A stretch of DNA of 14,304 nucleotides from NCBI GenBank assembly GCA_031409655.1, contig JANNXQ010000020.1:1-14304 (forward strand). Direction: 5' to 3'. Source of the stretch: Chthoniobacteraceae bacterium (lineage in GTDB: Bacteria; Verrucomicrobiota; Verrucomicrobiia; Chthoniobacterales; Chthoniobacteraceae). The translations under genes were made by a program, and so were the position numbers. The notes under the pieces are model-generated. The model made no database searches. It was not told the origin of the DNA and saw nothing but the letters and a program-made list of their open reading frames with translations. Below are positions 670-11,805 of this stretch, piece after piece. The number at the start of each line of letters is the position of its first letter. Positions within the stretch are counted from its first letter, which is position 1.

Positions 670-1272
670 CTATGCCACGAACACCGCAGCTCCTTGTGAG
701 TTGCGCCGACGCAGTTCCGCGAGCATGTCGCGCTCACTCAGCTCACGCGCCCACGCGGGCCGGAGTTGGAAGTGCGGCTCGTCCTGGATCGTCTTCCAGT
801 TGCCGCCCCATTCGAGGCCGAGCTTCATGCCGAGCGCGCCCACGGCTTTGTAGGCCGGGGATTCGTCGAGGTAACGACCGCCCTCGAAAACGCCGATGTC
901 GAACGCGATGCCGAAGTTGTGATTCGAATAGCCGCCGCGCGCGTTGGTGACGATGCGCCCGGCTTTCGCGCGACCCTGCTCGTAGAGGGCGTTCTGCTCA
1001 TCGTAGCTGCGCGTGCCGCTGATGATCTTGATGGCGATGCCGATAGCGGCGGCGCTTTCGATGAGCGCACGCGCGAGCGGCTGAACCTGCGGCAGCAACG
1101 TGCCGATGGTTCGCTCGCTGCGCTCATCGGCGAGCGTCGTGGGAGCAGACGGAACGGGAGGCTCGCCGACAAGCGAGCGGTAGATGGAATTCCACGTTTG
1201 CGGCCCGGGATTGCCGTCCACGGTGACGCCGAGCTTCGCCTGCACCGCGCGGATGGTGGCATCGAGTGTCAT
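670..1272 (-). CDS. M15-family (L-Ala-D-Glu-type) peptidase endolysin, 200 aa, with a short N-terminal peptidoglycan-binding-like segment
   Basis: Motifs SNHNFGIAFD (SxHxxGxAxD), EWGGNW and DEPHFQL; N-terminal VQAKLGVTVDGNPGPQTW. The start is re-called to ATG 1272 (GGAGG at 1283-1287, ATGA overlap with the upstream stop) instead of 1590. Confidence 0.9.
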   Translation of the reverse strand: MTLDATIRAVQAKLGVTVDGNPGPQTWNSIYRSLVGEPPVPSAPTTLADERSERTIGTLLPQVQPLARALIESAAAIGIAIKIISGTRSYDEQNALYEQGRAKAGRIVTNARGGYSNHNFGIAFDIGVFEGGRYLDESPAYKAVGALGMKLGLEWGGNWKTIQDEPHFQLRPAWARELSERDMLAELRRRNSQGAAVFVA

Positions 1273-1448
1273 TTCGCGTAGCCCTCCTTTTTCGGCAGCG
1301 CGAACTCGACGGCACCTCCGCCGTATTTCGGATTCTGATACTCGACGCGCACGAGCGAGCCGCAGCCGCTGAGCAGCCAGGCCAGCATCACGACGGCGAG
1401 GAAACCGAGGATGAGTTTGAGGGGATAAAGAAAAGAGTCCTGCTTCAT
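1269..1448 (-). CDS. 59-aa predicted lipoprotein in the lysis cassette (not in ORF track)
   Basis: MKQDSFLYPLKLILGFLAVVMLAWLLSGCGSLVRVEYQNPKYGGGAVEFALPKKEGYAK*. Hydrophobic stretch plus LSG/C lipobox. ATGA overlaps with both the terminase stop and the endolysin start. Confidence 0.8.
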   Translation of the reverse strand: MKQDSFLYPLKLILGFLAVVMLAWLLSGCGSLVRVEYQNPKYGGGAVEFALPKKEGYAK

Positions 1449-3274
1449 GCCGGCTCCGCCGCGTCAACCGCTGCGTCCTCGCCCGGCGGTTCTGCGGGCA
1501 CGACGGCCTCGCGTCCGATGAGCTTGAGCATCGTCGCCGCCGCGGCCTGCATCGCCTCGCAGTCGAGGTAGTGGTTCGGTCGCTTTCCAACTTGTCTCCA
1601 GAGCCACTTGCCGCCGTCCTTCACTCGCTGCTCGTTTTCCATTTGCGCGAGATAATCGTCGTCGATGTCGTCGGGAACTTCCCACGTTGCGCCGCGCTCC
1701 GGGTCTTGATTGCGCCGCAGCCTGGCCAGCGCGTTCTTGCAGCCGGGATTTGCGAAATAGAACGTCGAACAGGGCTGGTTGTGGCCGAGCACGACTTTGC
1801 GGCGGGGCGAATAGAAGCGCTGCACGCTGCGACCGGACTTGGTCTTGTGAACGAAGGTGGGCCGGCGATAACCCATCAGCACCGTCCAGCCGCGCCTGGT
1901 GCATTCGCGATACACATCGTAGGTCGCGTAACCGGCATCCACGAAGACCAGGCTGAAGTGGATGCCGAAGCGTTCCTACAGCGCCTCCACGTCGTCGAAG
2001 GTCAGCAGCCGCTCGAACCACACGAGCCGCGACGAACCATTGGCGCTCCAGGGACGGATCAGCGCCCAGAGGTGATCCATCTGACAGTCCACGGTGAGGA
2101 TCCGGAGCGGCACGGCGATATCGCCCGGCTCGAAAGGGGCGGCCACGATCTGGCCGCGTGCATTCACGCCAGCCTCGTCCTCCCACATCTCGCCCTTGCG
2201 GTAGCCGCCGCGCGTGATCTCCAGCTTGTAGTCCTCCTCATATTCGCGCCATGGCTGGGCCAAGCGTTTCTGGTGAAATTGTTTGAGCGCGCTGATGTCG
2301 CCGCGCCGGGCAATGGCCTTCGCCCGCAGATAAAGCTCCGCGAGCGTGCCCCAGCTCATCGTGCTCAGGCTGTTCCAATGGAAGCCCACGTTCTCCTTCG
2401 CCGCACGCTGGTCTTGCGCGACGAAACAGCCGGTGGCGTTCAGCTCCCGCCGGGTGCGGTCGGAATCCTCGAAGTAGAAATTGCACGACACGCAGCGCAT
2501 CGCCGCCGTGCGCCTCACCTCGGCGAAGTCCCATTCGCCGTTTTCATCGCGGGCCGATTTGGACCATTCGATCTGCTCCCAACTCCACGGCTGCCGCGTC
2601 CGGCAATGCGGACACTCGAAGGTCCACTCGCGCATGTTGGTCGTCTGGAACTTGCGATCGAAGTCATCGCCCTCCTCGCCGCCCTGGCTCATCAACACGC
2701 ATTTTCCCAGCCAGCCGAAGGCGGTCACGCGCGCCTCGGCCTCGGCCATGTGGCCCGGCGGGTATGCCCAGCATTCGTCGGCGAAGATCCAGCGGATGGA
2801 GCGGCGCTGAAGGTTCGTTTTGTTGTGCGCGCCGAGCACCCAGAGGGTCATGCCGTTGGCGCAATGAATGGTGGCCGTGCGTTTCTTGTGGCGATCGCGG
2901 GGGAACAGCGCGGAGACCGGCGCGCACTCCTCGAAGAGCTTGTGGAGGCGCGACTCGGCCTGATCCCTCGCGTCATCGTCCGTCTCGTTGAGCCACAGGG
3001 TCGGGCCGGGCAGATTGGCGATGACGTAGCAGAGGGCCAGCTCCGCCGCCGTGGTCTTGGAGGATTGCACCGAGGCGAGGAGGCAGACCTGCCGCACCGC
3101 GGGATCGACGATGGCTTCCAGCGGCTCGCGGATGTGCGGCGAGTTCTCGATCCGGAAGCGGCCCGGCACCGGCGAGTAGGGGATCGCCGCGATGTGACGG
3201 TGCGCCCACAGCCACGGCGGCGAGGGATCCGGTGGGCGCCAGGCGTCGCGCCAAATGCCATGGATGGCGTCCAT
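1445..3274 (-). pseudogene. Phage terminase large subunit, GpA (lambda-like) family, with in-frame TAG at codon 433 (1976-1978)
   Basis: ORFs 1976..3274 and 1445..1942 share a frame (DVEAL*ERFGIHFSLVFVDAGY). Walker A-like ASVQSSKT, Walker B IFADE, CPHC/CVSC, GFHWNSL, nuclease motifs TVDCQ, VDAGY and NHYLDCE. Confidence 0.88.
1449..1467 (-). promoter_or_regulatory. TTGAC-N14-ATG motif, copy 1 (before lipoprotein gene)
   Basis: Minus strand reads TTGAC GCGGCGGAGCCGGC ATG, inside the 3' end of the terminase gene. Confidence 0.55.
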
Positions 3275-3293
3275 GCACCTGGCGGTGCGTCAA
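3275..3293 (-). promoter_or_regulatory. TTGAC-N14-ATG motif, copy 2 (before terminase)
   Basis: Minus strand reads TTGAC GCACCGCCAGGTGC ATG. Confidence 0.55.
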
Positions 3294-3310
3294 CCCCTCC
3301 AACCCCTCAC

Positions 3311-3328
3311 GTTCATTGCGCAATGAAC
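3311..3328. promoter_or_regulatory. Perfect 18-bp palindrome, putative protein-binding site
   Basis: GTTCATTGCGCAATGAAC is its own reverse complement and lies between the HTH and terminase genes. Confidence 0.5.
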
Positions 3329-3369
3329 CTCGGGCCGCCCGAGCTACCGCTTCTTGCGACGCTGCGCCT

Positions 3370-3567
3370 TCACCTTCGCCGTGGCCCTGGTTCCTGGATG
3401 ACCTTCAGCATCGCTGCCAGGCCAAATCCCTGCGGGATCGCACGCTCCTGCTCCCAGTTTTCCAGCGAGCGTCGTGACACACCCAGCCGGTCTGCCGCTT
3501 CCTGCTGCGTGTAGTTGTTTTGCTCACGCCAGGCGACGAGTGTCTTCGCGAACTGCTGGTGCGTCAT
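3370..3567 (-). CDS. XRE/Cro-family helix-turn-helix regulator, 65 aa
   Basis: WREQNNYTQQEAADRLGVSRRSLENWEQERAIP matches the HTH_3 pattern. Confidence 0.9.
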   Translation of the reverse strand: MTHQQFAKTLVAWREQNNYTQQEAADRLGVSRRSLENWEQERAIPQGFGLAAMLKVIQEPGPRRR

Positions 3568-3575
3568 GAGCGCCG

Positions 3576-3604
3576 AGTGTCCGCAGGTTGCGGAGCCCGG
3601 TCAA
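3576..3604 (-). promoter_or_regulatory. Sigma70-like, probably leaderless promoter of the HTH gene with a palindromic operator
   Basis: Minus strand TTGACC-N17-GACACT-N8-ATG. The palindrome TCCGCA-N3-TGCGGA (3580-3594) overlaps the spacer and -10. Confidence 0.5.
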
Positions 3605-3615
3605 GGCGGTGCGCT

Positions 3616-3634
3616 TTGACAGCACCTGCCGTGT
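3616..3634 (+). promoter_or_regulatory. TTGAC-N14-GTG motif, copy 3 (before ParB-N gene)
   Basis: Plus strand reads TTGAC AGCACCTGCCGTGT GTG. Confidence 0.55.
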
Positions 3635-4438
3635 GTGAAGATCCACAGCGCCCACAATGCCCTCGTCGATCCGGCAACGCTCAAGCCGAACCCGGTCAAT
3701 CCGAACCGGCACAGCGCGCATCAGATTCAGCTTCTGGCATCCATCATTCAGGAGCAGGGTTGGCGCGGGCTAATCACGGTAAGCAAACGCAGCGGCCTGA
3801 TCGTGCGTGGCCACGGCCGCCCCGAGGCCGCGTTGCTCATGGGCGCGGAGAAGGTGCCGGTGGATTATCAGGACTACGCGAGCGACGCCGAGGAGCTGGC
3901 AGACTTGCTCGCTGACAACCGCCTCTCCGAACTCGCGGAGCTTGATGAGGACGACCTCAAGCGCGTGATCGAATCCATTCGAGCGAGCGACCCCAGCTTC
4001 GGCGTGGAACTCACCGGATTCATGGAGGATGAAATTGCGCGCCTCTACGATGAGCAGCCGGAGGACGACGTGGAAACCCTGCCGCGCATGGAGATTCAGG
4101 CGTTCGAGCACCACGACTACCTCGTTTTCATGTTTCACGACCTTCGCGACTGGATGCTCGCGCTCCAGCTCTTCGGCGTCCGCGAAGTGGATTTCTCAAT
4201 CACCCGCAAAACCAAAAACATCGGCATTGGCCGTGTGCTTCATGGAAAACGAATCCTCGACCTCGCCCGCCGTGCTGCCGCCGGCGGAAATCAACCTGCT
4301 CTCCCTGAAGGACTGGCCGGAACTGGCTCCGCTGAGCCTGCGCCTGGTGATCATGTCCCGGAGCCGTCCGCGGGCGATCACCAGCCACCGCCTGTTCCCG
4401 ACAGCGACGCTCGTCGTTCCCGAAAGCGAGCTGGCTGA
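3635..4438 (+). CDS. Phage ParB/Srx N-terminal domain protein, 267 aa
   Basis: LKPNPVNPNRH...LLASIIQEQGW...IVRGHGR...LLADNRLSELAE...ELTGF, typical of terminase-adjacent phage ParB-like proteins. The low-complexity tail overlaps the next gene. Confidence 0.85.
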   Translation: MKIHSAHNALVDPATLKPNPVNPNRHSAHQIQLLASIIQEQGWRGLITVSKRSGLIVRGHGRPEAALLMGAEKVPVDYQDYASDAEELADLLADNRLSELAELDEDDLKRVIESIRASDPSFGVELTGFMEDEIARLYDEQPEDDVETLPRMEIQAFEHHDYLVFMFHDLRDWMLALQLFGVREVDFSITRKTKNIGIGRVLHGKRILDLARRAAAGGNQPALPEGLAGTGSAEPAPGDHVPEPSAGDHQPPPVPDSDARRSRKRAG

Positions 4439-5072
4439 TTACGCGCACGTCCCGCTGGAGAAGGTCACGATCTCCGATGAAGTGACCGGCGTCAGTCCGG
4501 TGCGAAACTGGATTCTGCGGCACTTCACCGACGACGCCATTGTGATGCTCGACGACGACATCACGGCCTGCGTCTGCATGGTGTCGCTCCGCTGCCGCAA
4601 GCTCTCGACCGATGAGACGTTCGCCATGCTCGAAAACAGCGTCTACGGAGCACGCGGCGCCGGAGCTCGATTGTTTGGCTGGCACCAGCGCAGCGATCCG
4701 CGCCTGCTTCAACGCAATGATCCGTTCGGCGTTCACCATTGGGTCGGCGGCGCCGTGGGCGTCGTGCGCGATACGAATGGCGGAGTTCCAAAGTGGGATG
4801 AACTGCTCAAGTGCAAGTGCGACATCGACGCCACACTCGAAGAGTTGATGGCGAATCGTCTGGTCTGGAAGGAGGCCCGGTTCTGCTTCGTGCAGGAGCG
4901 GGACAAGAAGCTCGGCGGCAATTCACTTTTTCGCTCTGCCGAGCGCATCGCGGCCGAGAAGCGTTACCTCAAGCGGAAGTGGAAAGCCCACGTCCGGTTC
5001 GAGAGCTATCAAAGTCAGGACAAGACCGCGATTGATGTCCCGCGACGCCAGTCCTTCAGCCTCGATGCGTAG
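4242..5072 (+). CDS. GT-A fold glycosyltransferase, GREB1-related / TET-associated (TAGT-like), about 276 aa
   Basis: LVIMSRSR, RNWIL, VMLDDD (DxD), CDIDATL, GGNS and YLKRKW motifs. Start inferred at ATG 4242, same frame as track ORF 4029..5072. Confidence 0.7.
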   Translation: MENESSTSPAVLPPAEINLLSLKDWPELAPLSLRLVIMSRSRPRAITSHRLFPTATLVVPESELADYAHVPLEKVTISDEVTGVSPVRNWILRHFTDDAIVMLDDDITACVCMVSLRCRKLSTDETFAMLENSVYGARGAGARLFGWHQRSDPRLLQRNDPFGVHHWVGGAVGVVRDTNGGVPKWDELLKCKCDIDATLEELMANRLVWKEARFCFVQERDKKLGGNSLFRSAERIAAEKRYLKRKWKAHVRFESYQSQDKTAIDVPRRQSFSLDA

Positions 5073-5228: not shown

Positions 5229-5777
5229 ATGTGATTTCTAACTAAACGCGGCTATGAGTTTGGTGAGGTTTCCTCGGCGATGCAAAAGGCCATCCGCCGT
5301 GGAGACACTCGCCTTGCGGGTTATTGGGCGCTGGAACTCTGGGCCAGCGGTTACGGCAACTATGTCTGGAAGCGGTTGCTCACCGTGAGTGCCGAAGATT
5401 GCTGGGGAATTCTGACTCAGGAGGTAAAGGCGCTCCATGATGGTTACGCGCTCGTGAACGCCAACGTGCCCGCGAAGCAAGCCAAGGGCCGCATCTTCAT
5501 CAGCAAGGCCGTGATTCTCCTGTGCGCGGCTAAGAAGAACCGGGACGCCGATCATTTGCAGAACTTCGTCTATGACCAGTGCGCTGGGCTGGACGCTGAT
5601 AAACTCGCTGCCGAATTGGAGAAAGCCGGGCGTGAGAAAATTCCCGACTACGCCTTTGACTGCCACACACAAAAGGGTCGCAGAATGGGCAAGACCAAGG
5701 CCGAGTTTTTCCGCGATGAGCAGGCTGCACTTGAGCCCTTCCAGCCCGGTCTCTTCGATGACCTGATCGACGGTTGA
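5229..5777 (+). pseudogene. Stand-alone RarA/MgsA C-terminal-like protein with in-frame TGA at 5232-5234
   Basis: ATG TGA TTT CTA ACT AAA CGC GGC TAT is in frame with 5280..5777 (M*FLTKRGYEFGEVSSAMQKAIRRGD...YW...WKRLLTVSAED), resembling the MgsA_C pattern SAxxKSIRG...YW...RRL...SED. No Walker motifs. A further in-frame ATG lies at 5136, and restart at 5280 is possible. Confidence 0.65.
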
Positions 5778-5859: not shown

Positions 5860-8800
5860 TCATGGCGGGGAGAAGATTTTCAGGCGCACAAAGCATTGTA
5901 CTGCGCTGCCGACGGGGAGCGTGGCCTTTACCACTTGCACCGTGCCATTGTCGCTGAGGACCTGCTCAGTCACGCCACTTGTAATCCACAGGTCAGGGCC
6001 GGGCAACGTGTTGCTCCACTCCACAATGAAAGTTGCCCCAGCACTCACCGCAGCGATGCTGCGCGTGTAGGTAAATTCGAGGTTTGCGCCGTTGCGCATC
6101 ACGCTGGTAGGCAGAGGGGTGCTGGTGGTGGGGTCAAGATGGCAGGCCCATTCGATGAGATTGACAAGTCCATCACGATCGAAGTCAAAGTCATCGCCGG
6201 CGTTCCCGCCGTCGCCAGTGGTGCCGAAATATGTCTGCCGCCAGCTCTCCTGCGCTGTGAGCCCGATGCCTGCGATCACATAGGTGAATGGGTTTTCGTC
6301 GCTATCGTCGCTGGCAATACTCACGGTGGCAGTGGCGGGACCGGCGGCGCTGGGATTGAAAGTAATGGTGAACGTGGCTGTGCCGCCGCTGGCGGCGACG
6401 GCGGCGGCCGGTTGCGCAGTGACGCTGAAGGCGCTGCTGCCGCTCAGCGTGACGTAATTCGGCGCACTGCCGGTAAGTTGGAGAATACCGGTGCCGCTGT
6501 TGGTAACGGTGAAAGTGCGCGCCACAGTCCCACCGCTCACCGCCGTACTGCCGAAGTCGGTGTGATTCGCTGCACTTGGCGTGGTTTCGCCATTTGCAAT
6601 ATTGGTGCCGTTACCGCTTAGGGCGACCTCGGGGGCGGTCTCGCCTTCATATCGCACCACGGCAAAACTGTTGCCCGACCTGCCCGCAACAACGAGCATC
6701 CCATCGTGCTGCACTGCCACGCTGGACCCGAAGTCTTGTGCGCCGCCAAAATCTGTGCTCACTTTGCCAGCCTCGCCGAAGCTGTTATCCAGCACCCCGC
6801 TGGTTGTGTAACGTGCTACGGCAAAGTCCGACGACCCGAGTTTGGAGGTAGACCCAGCAACAAAGATCTTTCCGTTGGCCTGCAACGCCACACTGCTGGC
6901 GTAATCACTACTGCCATCAAAGTCGGTGATGATCCTGCCATTCGTGCCGAAGGCCGTGTCTAGCGCGCCACTGGACGTGAAGCGCACCACGGCGAAATCA
7001 TCGTTGGATGAGTAGCCCGCGACAAGTATCTTCCCGTCGCTCTGCACCACCACGCTGTTGCCCGACTCGTCGAGATCGAAATCAGTCACGACCTTGCCAC
7101 CCGTGCCAAAGGTTGGGTCCAGCGCGCCGCTCGCCGTATAGCGCACGACTGCGATGTCGATGTTAGTGCCGTTGTCGGACTCCCCTGCGATAACGATCTT
7201 ACCGTCGGTCTGCACTGCCACGCTATAGGCCCACGCATATCCACTGCTGCCGAGAGGCGTAGTTACCTTGCCACCCGTGCCGAACGTCGGGTCCAGCGTG
7301 CCGTCGATATTGTAACGGGCGAGGGCGAACTCCCAGTCGCTGCCGTTCTCGCAAGCGCCTGCGACGACGATCTTTCCATCGCTCTGTAGCGCCACGCTGT
7401 AGCCTTCGTCCCAGCTGCCGTAGAAGTCCGTGGTGACCTTGCCCTCCACGCCGAAGGTTGTGTCTAGCGCGCCACTGGCCGTGTAGCGCACCACGGCGAA
7501 ATCGCTGCTGTTCTCGTCGGATGAGTAGCCCGCGACGACGATTTTTCCGTCGCTCTGCACCACCACGCTGTTGCCAGACTCGTCGTTGAGATCGAAATCA
7601 GTCATCACCGTGCCGCCCGTGCCAAAGGTTGTGTCTAGCGTCCCGTTGGCATTGTAGCGGACCATCCCAATGTCGTAATTAACAATGAAATCTGTGCCGT
7701 TCATCACATAGCCTGCCACAACGATCTTGCCGTCACTTTGCAACGCTACATCCAATCCATTGCCGCCGCTTTGGCCAATGGGAGTCGTTGCTTTGCCGCC
7801 CGAACCAAAACTGCGATCAAGTCCATCTACTACGGTCACCGCGACGGTGGCTTCGTTGAGCACGCCCCACGAATCGATGACCCGATATGTGAATCGGTCA
7901 CTGCCTGCGAGCATCGCGGGAGTGCCAGCCGTATAGATGATCGAATTCCCGTCGATCGTCGCCGTCCCGCCTAGAGGCTGCGAGACACTGTCGATGGATA
8001 ATGTGCCGCCGGAAAGCGCGACATCGTTCGCCAGAATCGGGATGGTGAGTGGGAGCTTTCCATTTGTCAAAGCGTTGTCATTGGCTGCCAATGGCGGCAC
8101 GCCTCGGGATTCCACGTTCACCCGCGTCTGAAAACCATCTAGGGAAATGGTGAGTCTCGCGGTACCAGGTGTCAGCGCGGTGATGTTCAGGCCACCATCT
8201 ACGCGCACCACTGTCGTACGCGAGGAAACTACGGAAAGATTGGCCCCGGGGGACACATAGGCAGGCAACTGGGTTAGATCCGAGTAAACCTTCCGAACTC
8301 CGAAAGTCGTCGAAGTGCCTGCCGCTATTGTGATCGTGTCTGGATCCACCGAAATCCCTTCCTGAACAACCGGGGGTGGGCGGGAAACGGCCACGATTGG
8401 CGCGGCGACTACGAATACACCCGCTGTAGAAATGTAGGTGGCACTCAGAACGACCTCTCCGAGAAAATCATCCGCAACGACCAAGGTTACTTGCCGCGCA
8501 TCAGTCTCCGAGATCTGTAATGACACAGGTTCCGCAGAGGTGCCGAAAATGCCGAGAGACCAATTCAGCGAACCCATTTCAATCTGGCTTTCGTCCACCG
8601 CGAGATGGAATTCGGAAGTGGTCTGCGAGGCAGCCAGCCCTAGTTTCTGTGGAGCCTGTGGCGATCCCGAGCCGGGCGCGATGGGGCCAGGAGCGGCCTC
8701 AACGGATGGGACGAGACTCCTAACCCAATTCGCATCAGTCATCGGTCTGAGGTCCTGCCGAAGAAAAGGTCCAAAAGGAAGACGATCTCCCTCAAGTAGA

Positions 8801-10746
8801 GTTGCGACGTAACGCGCGAGGTTCGCGTTCCGGGTTTGGGAATCAGGCAACTGGGATCCAATCCCAAATGCAAGTCCCGGACCGGCGTGTTGTGCATCTT
8901 CAACACGCCACTTCAGGGCGCTGCGATTACCAGGAAATGCACCCGCGAGACTGGAATCAGGTTCAACAACACCGTCGGATCCGTGGGGCAGCAGCATCGT
9001 ACCTCTGAGAGATCTCAATCCAAGAGCATTGTAAGCTCTGATTCCCGGCCCTTCATTCGGTGAAAAACCGTCGTTCACATACGTGGCGCTGAGATGTAAC
9101 GGTGCATCTGGATCGGTGATATACTCAGGGCGATTGATGTGGCGGACTTGAACTCCGAACGGATCAAACTTCCCCAAGACTCCTTGGTTCCACAAATCGG
9201 AGATCTGTTTTTGGACGACGTATCTGTAAGCCTGCGGTAAGGCCTCCGTTCCTTTAAGTCCGAGCTCGTGCATGTAAGGGTCCAGCACGTTCCCGTTATG
9301 TGGCGAGCCTATGGTTACAATCCTCCGGAACCGCCCACGTTCAAAGTTCGTCGCATTGCGAAAGGGCTTCTGGAGACCCCAGTACTTCGAGCTGTTCCGA
9401 GCGATCGACAACATACGCAAGATCACACCCCCTTGACTGTGTCCGACTACATCGAACCGGGTCATAGCCCACTTCATAGATGGTGCTAGCCCCGCGTCTC
9501 CAAAAACAGCGTTGTCTAGCGTCGCATCAACATCTTCGGCGAGGTTCGCGAGCGATTGACGAATGGCACGAAGCCACTTTTCCCCGTCACGAACATCCGG
9601 ATTTCCATAGTCGATTGCCACGAAATCCCTGCCTTGTTCACTGAATTTCAAAAGAAAACTTTCACTCCAAGTATCGGCGTTTGAGGCAACTCCATGCACG
9701 AAGACGATCGGCGGCTTCCTAAACGAGATACGGGCGCGTGCCAGTTCTCCAGCTTGGCCGTCAACCACCGCGACTAAGTCCGCTGTGATCTCCTTGCTGC
9801 CTAGGAACATACTGAGTGCGGATGGTTGCAATGCACTGATCATCGCGAATCCAATTCCCGATGAGTCAAGTTGGATTACCCTCGAGAGATCCCAATCGGT
9901 GGCGCCTAGAGACCGAATGACGGGCATCTGGAGGGGCGGAGGCTGCAAAAGCGTTCCGCCCTCCTCATTCTCATACGAAAGCGTTACTGTGGCTCCCGGA
10001 GGTCCAATAATTCGAATCACCAATGGCGTGACGCCATCTGCGACCAACCCTGAATCCACCACGGGGAGCGCAAGGAGCCGGTCGCGCTGAGTCGTTGGAA
10101 TGAGAGCGTCGTCAATACCGGCATCCAGGTTGAGGACATCATCCGGCTGGGACAAGCGTTTGAAGGAGATCGGGCCGCCAGTTACACGGACTGAAAACGA
10201 GCCCTGATTGTCCGCGAAAATATCATCATTGATTCCCAACTGAAGGAAAGATGCTCCGGCAGGAACAAGCATCTCAGTGATCCCGTGACCAACCTTGAAC
10301 GGAGCACCGATGACCACACCATTCGCGTCTGCAAAGGCTCCCATTAACGCCATAAGCGAAATCGGCCAGGTAGCACCTGCATATTTGCTCGGAAAGGGCT
10401 GCCCGCTGCTGCCCAACTTTTCATTCGCAGGTGACCATGCATCCCAGCCAATGCCTCGGGGATAACCGTCAGGCCCGCAAAACGTCCCTCTCCCGTCGGC
10501 TGCCACCAGGCCTCCAAGCACGGTCACGGATACTCGAGAGCCCGCTTGGACAGCGAACCTTACCGGCGGCTGGTGGTCGTTCACTCCAAACGGTAGCGTA
10601 GGATTTGAACCGCGCTCCCATGGCCCCACTTTGCTGGAGACGGTAAGCGTCGCTGTAGCTGCCACCGCAACGTGTGAAACGATCAGCCACGCGCAGGTCG
10701 CCACAAGAAATGCGCTACTAAAAAAACGATGCTTTTTGCTCCTCAT
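5860..10746 (-). CDS. 1628-aa secreted multidomain protein: signal peptide, lectin-like beta domain, alpha/beta-hydrolase (lipase-like), Ig-like domains, 7 delta-60 repeats, choice-of-anchor-D-like Ig domain, Verrucomicrobia-type C-terminal domain
   Basis: Basic plus hydrophobic N-terminus; PIVFVHG, GHSQGG (9427-9444), TIGSPHNG, SDGVV; PPLAANDNA...FTY; LDxxFGxGG/QxDGKIVVAG repeats; DFGS...RTFTVTNSG; WRQTYFG...DFDRDGLVNLIEW...LDP...FVRLKI. Confidence 0.9.
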   Translation of the reverse strand: MRSKKHRFFSSAFLVATCAWLIVSHVAVAATATLTVSSKVGPWERGSNPTLPFGVNDHQPPVRFAVQAGSRVSVTVLGGLVAADGRGTFCGPDGYPRGIGWDAWSPANEKLGSSGQPFPSKYAGATWPISLMALMGAFADANGVVIGAPFKVGHGITEMLVPAGASFLQLGINDDIFADNQGSFSVRVTGGPISFKRLSQPDDVLNLDAGIDDALIPTTQRDRLLALPVVDSGLVADGVTPLVIRIIGPPGATVTLSYENEEGGTLLQPPPLQMPVIRSLGATDWDLSRVIQLDSSGIGFAMISALQPSALSMFLGSKEITADLVAVVDGQAGELARARISFRKPPIVFVHGVASNADTWSESFLLKFSEQGRDFVAIDYGNPDVRDGEKWLRAIRQSLANLAEDVDATLDNAVFGDAGLAPSMKWAMTRFDVVGHSQGGVILRMLSIARNSSKYWGLQKPFRNATNFERGRFRRIVTIGSPHNGNVLDPYMHELGLKGTEALPQAYRYVVQKQISDLWNQGVLGKFDPFGVQVRHINRPEYITDPDAPLHLSATYVNDGFSPNEGPGIRAYNALGLRSLRGTMLLPHGSDGVVEPDSSLAGAFPGNRSALKWRVEDAQHAGPGLAFGIGSQLPDSQTRNANLARYVATLLEGDRLPFGPFLRQDLRPMTDANWVRSLVPSVEAAPGPIAPGSGSPQAPQKLGLAASQTTSEFHLAVDESQIEMGSLNWSLGIFGTSAEPVSLQISETDARQVTLVVADDFLGEVVLSATYISTAGVFVVAAPIVAVSRPPPVVQEGISVDPDTITIAAGTSTTFGVRKVYSDLTQLPAYVSPGANLSVVSSRTTVVRVDGGLNITALTPGTARLTISLDGFQTRVNVESRGVPPLAANDNALTNGKLPLTIPILANDVALSGGTLSIDSVSQPLGGTATIDGNSIIYTAGTPAMLAGSDRFTYRVIDSWGVLNEATVAVTVVDGLDRSFGSGGKATTPIGQSGGNGLDVALQSDGKIVVAGYVMNGTDFIVNYDIGMVRYNANGTLDTTFGTGGTVMTDFDLNDESGNSVVVQSDGKIVVAGYSSDENSSDFAVVRYTASGALDTTFGVEGKVTTDFYGSWDEGYSVALQSDGKIVVAGACENGSDWEFALARYNIDGTLDPTFGTGGKVTTPLGSSGYAWAYSVAVQTDGKIVIAGESDNGTNIDIAVVRYTASGALDPTFGTGGKVVTDFDLDESGNSVVVQSDGKILVAGYSSNDDFAVVRFTSSGALDTAFGTNGRIITDFDGSSDYASSVALQANGKIFVAGSTSKLGSSDFAVARYTTSGVLDNSFGEAGKVSTDFGGAQDFGSSVAVQHDGMLVVAGRSGNSFAVVRYEGETAPEVALSGNGTNIANGETTPSAANHTDFGSTAVSGGTVARTFTVTNSGTGILQLTGSAPNYVTLSGSSAFSVTAQPAAAVAASGGTATFTITFNPSAAGPATATVSIASDDSDENPFTYVIAGIGLTAQESWRQTYFGTTGDGGNAGDDFDFDRDGLVNLIEWACHLDPTTSTPLPTSVMRNGANLEFTYTRSIAAVSAGATFIVEWSNTLPGPDLWITSGVTEQVLSDNGTVQVVKATLPVGSAVQCFVRLKIFSPP
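6645..7824 (-). repeat. Seven intragenic delta-60 (DUF5122-like) beta-propeller repeats, about 55 aa each
   Basis: Seven Q(S/T/A/H)(D/N)G(K/M)(I/L)xxAG motifs, with near-identical DNA between ~6956-7110 and ~7460-7630. Confidence 0.85.
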
Positions 10747-11034: not shown

Positions 11035-11805
11035 ATGTCTGCAACATCCACCACAAGCCATGCGCAAAAGATACGCATTCTGCGTAGTCTGCGGAAACCC
11101 GAGGACGTTGAAGCGATGAACATCCGCTTCGGCGTCGAACTTGAAACCAAAGTGCCACGCACCTGCGGCCTCGCCGCCGGCGGCTAACACGTCGGCTATC
11201 CGGTGAGGACGGCCCGCGCGATCAACGGACAGGAACTTGCCGCGCCCACCTTCAACGGTGCTACGTGGCGGGCCGACCGCGACGGTTCCATCACGTCCGA
11301 GCCGGGCGAGATGCCCTGCGAATTTGTGTCGCCCATTCTTCACGGAGCTGAGGGCGTCGAGAACCTCTGCCGGTTCATGGAATGGATGAACGCGATCGGC
11401 GCCACCGTCGATAACTCGTGCGGCGTCCACATCACCGTGGGCATCGAGTCGGTGATCGGCAGCCGGGAGGCGGGCAAGGTGAGCGAGTTCGTGCGCAAGC
11501 TGGCGCACATCGCGCAGTGGCACGCGATGTCGCTCTATGGTCAGACGGGCACTGGCCGCCACCTGAGCCGCTACAGCCACACGCTCGCCGTCGACGTGGA
11601 GCGCCGCATGAAGAAAATCGTGAACACGAGCAGCGTGGCGGACAAGGAAGCTGCGGCGGCGGCCTGCGGGCGCGGAATGGTTTCGTTCCAAAAGGCGTTC
11701 AGAATGCGCGGCGATGAGTATGTGGGCGCGGTGGAGTTCCGCGTGTTCGCCGGCACCACGAGTCTCATGAAAGTGCTGCATCACTTGGCGACGGTGCTCG
11801 GGCTT
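11035..11805 (+). pseudogene. Putative amidoligase (Amidoligase_2 / COOH-NH2 ligase-like), in-frame TAA at 11185-11187, 3'-truncated
   Basis: ORFs 10918..11187 and 11203..12120 share a frame (AAGG*HVGYPVR). Motifs FGVELE, DGSI, EFVSPIL, SCGVHI and VEFRVFAGT. The frame becomes Arg-rich and non-protein-like after TVLGL (11805). Start at 11035 or 11116. Confidence 0.8.

Follow-up and report, generated by a model that had tools for sequence, protein, structure and literature searches.

The prophage block and its genes

The window, by which we mean the whole 14,304-nt stretch of Chthoniobacteraceae DNA analysed here, is contig C20 of the source assembly (G000). Its left 5.8 kb is a decayed prophage block: its small terminase gene (TerS) has been deleted in frame and a TAG codon lies inside its large terminase gene (TerL). 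The block encodes an endolysin, a lipoprotein, the stop-broken GpA-type TerL, a helix-turn-helix (HTH) gene and a divergent unit of ParB-N, glycosyltransferase and MgsA-C-like genes (Table 1), and its relatives with named records come from Chthoniobacteraceae, Luteolibacter and other Verrucomicrobia. An ATGA overlap couples the endolysin gene, which lacks its own copy of the motif described below, to the lipoprotein-like gene, for which no Pfam or PHROG match was found.

The remainder of the window includes a gene for a 1,628-aa secreted-type protein (5860-10746, minus strand) with a DUF5122 propeller, a hydrolase and Ig domains. It is flanked by two phage blocks (to ~5777 and from ~10925), and relatives carry other genes at this place. 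In an amidoligase-like phage gene (11118-12120, plus strand), a TAA at 11185-11187 breaks the frame and a second break is apparent near the end.

Table 1. Genes and sites of the prophage block (window positions)
Feature	Position	Strand	Details
M15-type endolysin	670..1272	-	PF13539 2e-13; phrog_2649 1.5e-35
59-aa lipoprotein-like gene, led by site 1	1269..1448	-	lipobox read from sequence
GpA-type large terminase (TerL), TerS-derived start	1445..3274	-	in-frame TAG at 1976-1978
Motif site 1	1446..1467	-	TTGAC (1467-1463), 14-nt spacer ending GGC, lipoprotein ATG
Motif site 2	3272..3293	-	TTGAC-N14-ATG, small-terminase (TerS) head in relatives
XRE-type HTH gene with normally spaced promoter-like site	3370..3567	-	profile matches
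Ordinary host-type promoter-like site, HTH gene	3565..3604	-	TTGACC, 17 nt, GACACT, 8 nt, ATG
Motif site 3	3616..3637	+	TTGAC-N14-GTG, head of ParB-N/glycosyltransferase/MgsA-C-like unit
ParB-N-domain gene, led by site 3	3635..4438	+	phrog_498 8e-32, phrog_620 4e-27
TET-associated-type glycosyltransferase, downstream of site 3, without own motif	4242..5072	+	
MgsA-C-like gene, downstream of site 3, without own motif	5280-5777	+	

Three TTGAC-N14 sites in the window

The pattern TTGAC-N14-RTG has exactly three matches in the whole window, on both strands and every one heading a phage gene, at the places that the original prediction had described. That prediction also held that the spacers lack a -10 box and a strong Shine-Dalgarno sequence, which both the sequence and a promoter scan bear out: neither a -10 hexamer nor a good Shine-Dalgarno sequence occurs in the three spacers, and the scan of the window found no sigma70-type promoter at the three sites.

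Site 1 is embedded in the final TerL codons, and the TerL stop shares nucleotides with the lipoprotein ATG; the N14 spacing of the site is kept in 15 of 15 non-redundant homologs among those listed. Site 2, previously taken for the terminase start, does lie at the start of a phage gene, but the motif and the MDAI codons behind it belong to the TerS of relatives. Its counterpart in 14 listed relatives, TTGAC-N14-ATG-GAY-KCN-AT, heads a TerS of 197-203 aa; here about 600 nt of TerS have been deleted in frame (3256-3293, minus strand), leaving its first four codons fused to TerL. Site 3 marks the first gene of the divergent unit, where the 67-nt intergenic region has no TA dinucleotide on the plus strand, so that no TANNNT is possible before the ParB-N gene. 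Among homologs of this site the spacing tracks the start codon despite differing N-termini and unrelated spacer letters. The assembly has five further N14 sites, spread over three more contigs and likewise leading prophage genes. Judged from the window alone, the three sites are borderline, because shuffled windows gave a mean of 0.78 matches, with three reached in 10 of 200 shuffles, and because the pattern was picked after looking.

Spacing in related elements and in the host genome

Inclusion of relatives made the signal decisive. Counts of TTGAC-Nk-ATG followed by an open reading frame of at least 50 aa, in 132 loci collected through TerL and ParB, were 129, 69, 23, 73, 29 and 17 for k=14 to k=19 and at most 18 elsewhere, and five control words showed no comparable peak. 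A motif-blind sample, in which coding statistics were the sole basis for calling the 2,797 non-redundant starts of 232 loci, gave 202, 64, 36, 78, 28 and 9 at the same distances, 3 at k=20 and at most 6 at every k up to 13, along with small ordinary TTGAC peaks at k=30-33 and 38. A repeat in 80 further loci from named genomes placed 59 sites at k=14. These loci are mutually related, so that these counts are not independent events, and they span more than 20 gene families. The claim of a spacing of exactly 14 nt thus stands for the three window sites but not for the family, which uses 14 to 19 with its mode at 14.

At k=14 and 17 the TGA within TTGAC falls in frame as a stop codon, which, like the shuffled windows that reach three matches, could speak for chance or a gene-calling artefact. 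This TGA does not create the peak, because the same-frame distances 8, 11, 20 and 23 are flat. Together with the enrichment at the out-of-frame distances 15, 16 and 18, the flat control words and spacer letters that vary while the length stays, this rules out such an origin, to which we assign a negligible probability.

In the host genome (G000), TTGAC peaks 29-33 nt before ATG (hexamer at about -37/-38), the same distance as the 32 nt found at the HTH gene of the window, and TANNNT lies at -12/-13. Shine-Dalgarno words show no peak before ATG in this genome; these three features suggest that G000 commonly uses leaderless transcription. TTGAC at k=14 is at background there (0 of 73 windows), and the motif is not a host feature. 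The host peak and the HTH-gene site, set against the phage motif, place the same hexamer at two distances about 16-18 bp apart. The original prediction had suggested plotting the TTGAC-to-start distance in homologous elements against host genes; the result is a sharp peak at 14 that the host lacks. Its proposal of a non-canonical expression signal is supported by this positional enrichment in related elements and the absence from host genes. In sum, the motif is real and widespread in mobile elements of one phylum, namely Verrucomicrobia prophages and small integrative elements.

Anatomy of the motif

In the family-weighted consensus, a stretch rich in G+C separates (G)TTGAC(A/G)C from GG(G)C, after which comes the start codon; nothing is conserved upstream. 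Its bipartite form is TTGAC(A/G)C-N7..8-GG(G)C with a purine behind it. It includes a TTGACA-like -35 hexamer, as a canonical sigma70 promoter does. The logos show no TANNNT 16-18 bp downstream of TTGAC, a slot that is filled by codons 2-4, and the -12..-7 slot before the start codon is G+C-rich without -10-like bases. GGAG, GAGG or AGGA occurs 4-11 nt before the start in 7% of 201 k=14 sites, which does not amount to a Shine-Dalgarno signal. The mini-hairpin originally proposed as part of the motif, seen as stems of 4, 5 and 3 bp in the window, is not a family trait: stems of at least 4 bp occur in 11% of 64 non-redundant N14 spacers, two shuffle controls giving 8% and 10%, and spacer position pairs at k=14 show no covariation (best z 2.1).

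Motif-led genes include those for the small terminase, ParB-N, gpW-like, head protease, scaffold, head-tail, tail tube, tape measure and tail fibre proteins; other motif-led genes are lysis genes, a DUF559 nuclease gene, an LmbU-like gene, integrase and excisionase genes. Some of these identities come from Pfam or PHROG matches, others from gene order and sequence. Motif-led genes are followed by closely coupled genes without the motif, and the motif itself is found at 2 of 283 starts lying 1-10 nt behind the upstream gene and at 94 of 322 with gaps of 11-25 nt. A satellite-like element (G003:C26 30586-51148; L141, L142) with integrase, excisionase, primase, scaffold and capsid genes carries the motif at k=14-18. 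In a phage of 49% G+C (L306, 400-13300), six motif spacers share a single 16-bp sequence, a perfect palindrome that overlaps the box and is likely an operator superimposed on the promoter.

Promoter or ribosome signal

The spacing is one-sided, with a hard lower edge at k=14. At k=15 the GG(G)C block shifts with the ATG, which we read as a spacer that may simply be one base longer; at k=16-18 the block remains 10-13 nt past TTGAC and does not adjoin the ATG. Enrichment is confined to purine-initial start codons (ATG 157, GTG 85, TTG 8), and bacterial transcription usually starts at a pyrimidine-purine step (-1/+1). Canonical promoters were found at 4% of 112 motif-led divergent heads compared to 3% in shuffles, and at 15% of 372 other divergent heads compared to 5%; similarly, TANNNT occurs in the last 20 nt of 1% of the 112 motif heads versus 17% of the 372 others. 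A terminator-like hairpin ends no more than 45 nt upstream of 10 of 129 motif genes versus 5 of 807 others, two of these five being mis-called motif sites, and the hairpin cases stem from few junctions. The spacer is G-rich and predicted to fold over the start (-10.7 versus -4.3 kcal/mol). The one-sided spacing, the TTGAC-anchored block, the purine starts, the missing canonical promoters and the upstream terminator-like hairpins favour a leaderless promoter, and we consider the motif to be probably such a promoter rather than a ribosome signal.

Act, a protein of the elements with a predicted sigma-region-4-like fold

The candidate reader of the motif is Act (family P0001), a 189-aa element-encoded protein with a predicted sigma-region-4-like HTH fold. 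Act belongs to no named family. Sigma70_r2 matched none of 108 Act members, whose N-terminal helices (5-40) were barely covered by the fold search. Motif enrichment was observed in 21 of 45 regions with Act versus 0 of 11 prophage regions without it, and Act is absent from eight of ten partial contigs. The cultured strain Chthoniobacter flavus Ellin428 (L132/G001) carries both Act and motif sites; no Act gene was found in the source assembly, and tblastn gave no match in 50,697 phage records. The box stays TTGAC though the Act helix varies, and one prophage of genome G029 has CTGAC in place of TTGAC while the host sigma70 region 4.2 is unchanged; an Act homolog of G029 lies at L364:1249-1791. 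An LmbU-like gene is present in 19 of the 21 enriched elements.

Several observations concern individual elements. The LmbU-family-like gene L134:7153-7815 (P0002; E 1e-22, below the curated cut-off) lies directly after Act in most of these prophages. Four small integrative elements of an Opitutaceae-like family in G029 (f10: L485, L489, L494 and L497) have TTGAC-N14 before integrase and excisionase; f10 elements of G029 also carry an Act-like HTH gene, and L494 a relaxase-like gene as well. It is possible that these elements are satellites answering a helper's factor. Act-less Terminase_6N prophages show other words: ATTAA/TTAAC 17 and 24 nt before starts at nine sites in L521-L522 (G068), and TAACC fixed 16-17 nt before starts in L517-L518 (G212).

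Proposed mechanism and alternatives

The reading to which we give the most weight, at a probability of roughly 0.45, is that the motif is a compact leaderless promoter without a -10 box that is switched on by Act, with the helix of Act on the box. Act would recruit host RNA polymerase to the TTGAC box, contacting the box through its own helix, and transcription would start on a purine, either the A or G of the start codon or up to ~5 nt before it. Expression would follow induction, because the motif heads packaging, head, tail, lysis, DNA-modification, integrase and excisionase units. Without a helper that provides Act, the three window copies are probably silent, since the prophage is decayed and its assembly yielded no Act gene. 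The original prediction had offered a short leaderless promoter read by a phage factor as one option, which the TTGAC-anchored second block, the missing canonical promoters and the co-occurrence of the sigma4-like protein now support. A bolder and rather doubtful version casts Act as a "mini-sigma", a region-4-like protein without a recognisable region 2 that would start host polymerase 14 bp past a -35 word, a helix change switching TTGAC to CTGAC; packaging, virion, lysis, integrase and excisionase units would then each get their own leaderless message without any -10 element.

The same promoter could instead be read by host sigma70 region 4, repositioned by Act and/or the LmbU-like protein: region 4 would be pulled off the flap tip and set beside region 2, the element factor giving positioning and opening but leaving the bases unread. 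This seems unlikely, though it is the strongest of the competing accounts. The box is the host -35 word and stays constant while the Act helix changes; a start at ATG puts the hexamer at -19..-14, directly upstream of the -12..-7 slot; the LmbU-like gene is nearly always at hand; and the geometry matches the one described for sigma region 4 in the paused Q-lambda complex (PMC9388147, PMC6606751). However, the slot lacks the -10-like bases that the lambda case needs, CTGAC is used in G029 with an unchanged host region 4.2, Act itself has the predicted region-4-like fold, and the lambda case is paused elongation, not initiation. Far less probable is a hairpin signal or a half-site operator to which a repressor would bind: the shared palindrome of the six L306 sites and a GTCAA that is often present upstream of the ParB site point this way, but that GTCAA serves the divergent HTH gene as its -35 and lies at varying distance, k=14 spacers show neither hairpin excess nor covariation, and a repressor site leaves the missing promoter unexplained.

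Two accounts that place the signal in RNA, the second of which extends to a promoter read by some other protein, appear improbable to a similar degree. UUGAC in a longer message could be a translation-initiation element bound by an element RNA-binding protein or a ribosomal component, an option that the original prediction had left standing. The scarcity of the motif at the shortest intergenic gaps, the little use of Shine-Dalgarno sequences in host and phage and the constant register with the start codon are compatible with it; the anchoring of the second block to TTGAC, the one-sided spacing, the lack of TTG starts, the motif-led divergent genes without alternative promoter, the terminator-like hairpins just upstream, the structured, G-rich spacer and the non-use of the motif by host genes all argue against it. 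A nuclease cutting long late transcripts 14-15 nt past UUGAC, with leaderless messages as the product, or a promoter read by a protein other than Act, also predicts the hard lower edge and the TTGAC-anchored block, and the partial contigs that lack Act fit here. Processing, however, presupposes a promoter further upstream, and motif-led divergent genes have none; sites lie directly behind terminator-like hairpins, and Act-less prophages of the same class are without the motif.

Comparison with known systems

In the Q-lambda paused complex, sigma70 region 4 lies immediately upstream of region 2 (PMC9388147, PMC6606751). The leaderless promoter proposed here shares with that system a -35-like word that adjoins the -10 slot rather than lying ~17 bp away, and an HTH protein encoded after the phage replication genes that is linked to late-gene control. 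Lambda Q acts at one site per genome, on a paused elongation complex with a real -10-like element, and in antitermination, whereas the Verrucomicrobia motif has many sites per genome, no -10-like bases, a tie to start codons and, presumably, a role in initiation. As a Q-type antitermination site the motif fits in position, and the logos lack the -10-like pause element; profile searches gave no Q-family match for Act, and Q is not among its fold-search rows.

Leaderless sigma70 promoters, a type also seen in the host, are described for Deinococcus (PMC4007540) and mycobacteria (PMC4633059). The likeness lies in a start codon at or next to the (here presumed) transcription start, the use of ATG and GTG only and the absence of a Shine-Dalgarno sequence. 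Those promoters have TANNNT at about -12 and the -35 element at about -36, whereas the phage motif has TTGAC 16-18 bp closer and is depleted of TANNNT.

A short phage-specific motif before many late genes, absent from host genes, is also what phage late specificity factors read. Those of T4 (gp55), SPO1 (gp28/gp33-34) and phiKZ (the non-virion polymerase) are region-2-type sigmas or whole polymerases that recognise new words at the -10 or start; here, in contrast, the host -35 hexamer itself serves as the word, at -19, and a region-4-like protein is the candidate factor. RinA/ArpU/LtrC, P2 Ogr, Mu C and SetCD/AcaCD, the late or excision activators of temperate phages and islands, resemble Act as small HTH activators encoded after the replication module and common to phages and int-xis satellites; they bind upstream of or over the -35 at one or few promoters that retain a -10, and Act matched none of these families in Pfam, PHROGs or NCBIfam. 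The start-associated sequences of cluster K mycobacteriophages likewise recur a short, constant distance ahead of certain start codons, but they are Shine-Dalgarno-like, 3-8 nt from the start and read as translational, whereas the Verrucomicrobia motif has no anti-Shine-Dalgarno match and its second block is anchored to TTGAC.

Searches of the freely readable literature found no description of the motif. Initiation of the sigma70 type depends on a -10 element and on a set distance between -35 and start, and a promoter with its -35 word 16-18 bp closer and no -10 would, if true, require a new holoenzyme arrangement and offer a direct test of how polymerase, in the absence of region 2, can open DNA rich in G+C. 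As far as we searched, it would be the first regulatory scheme proposed for phages of this widespread soil and freshwater phylum, in which, judged by the phage records searched, no cultured phage carries Act. In practice, start codons can be assigned by the motif, which also flags the genes of prophages and islands in Verrucomicrobia genomes, and a one-protein, 20-bp switch could become an orthogonal expression tool. Although it lacks the -10 element that sigma70 promoters and the Q site possess, the motif resembles both the late promoters read by phage factors and leaderless promoters.
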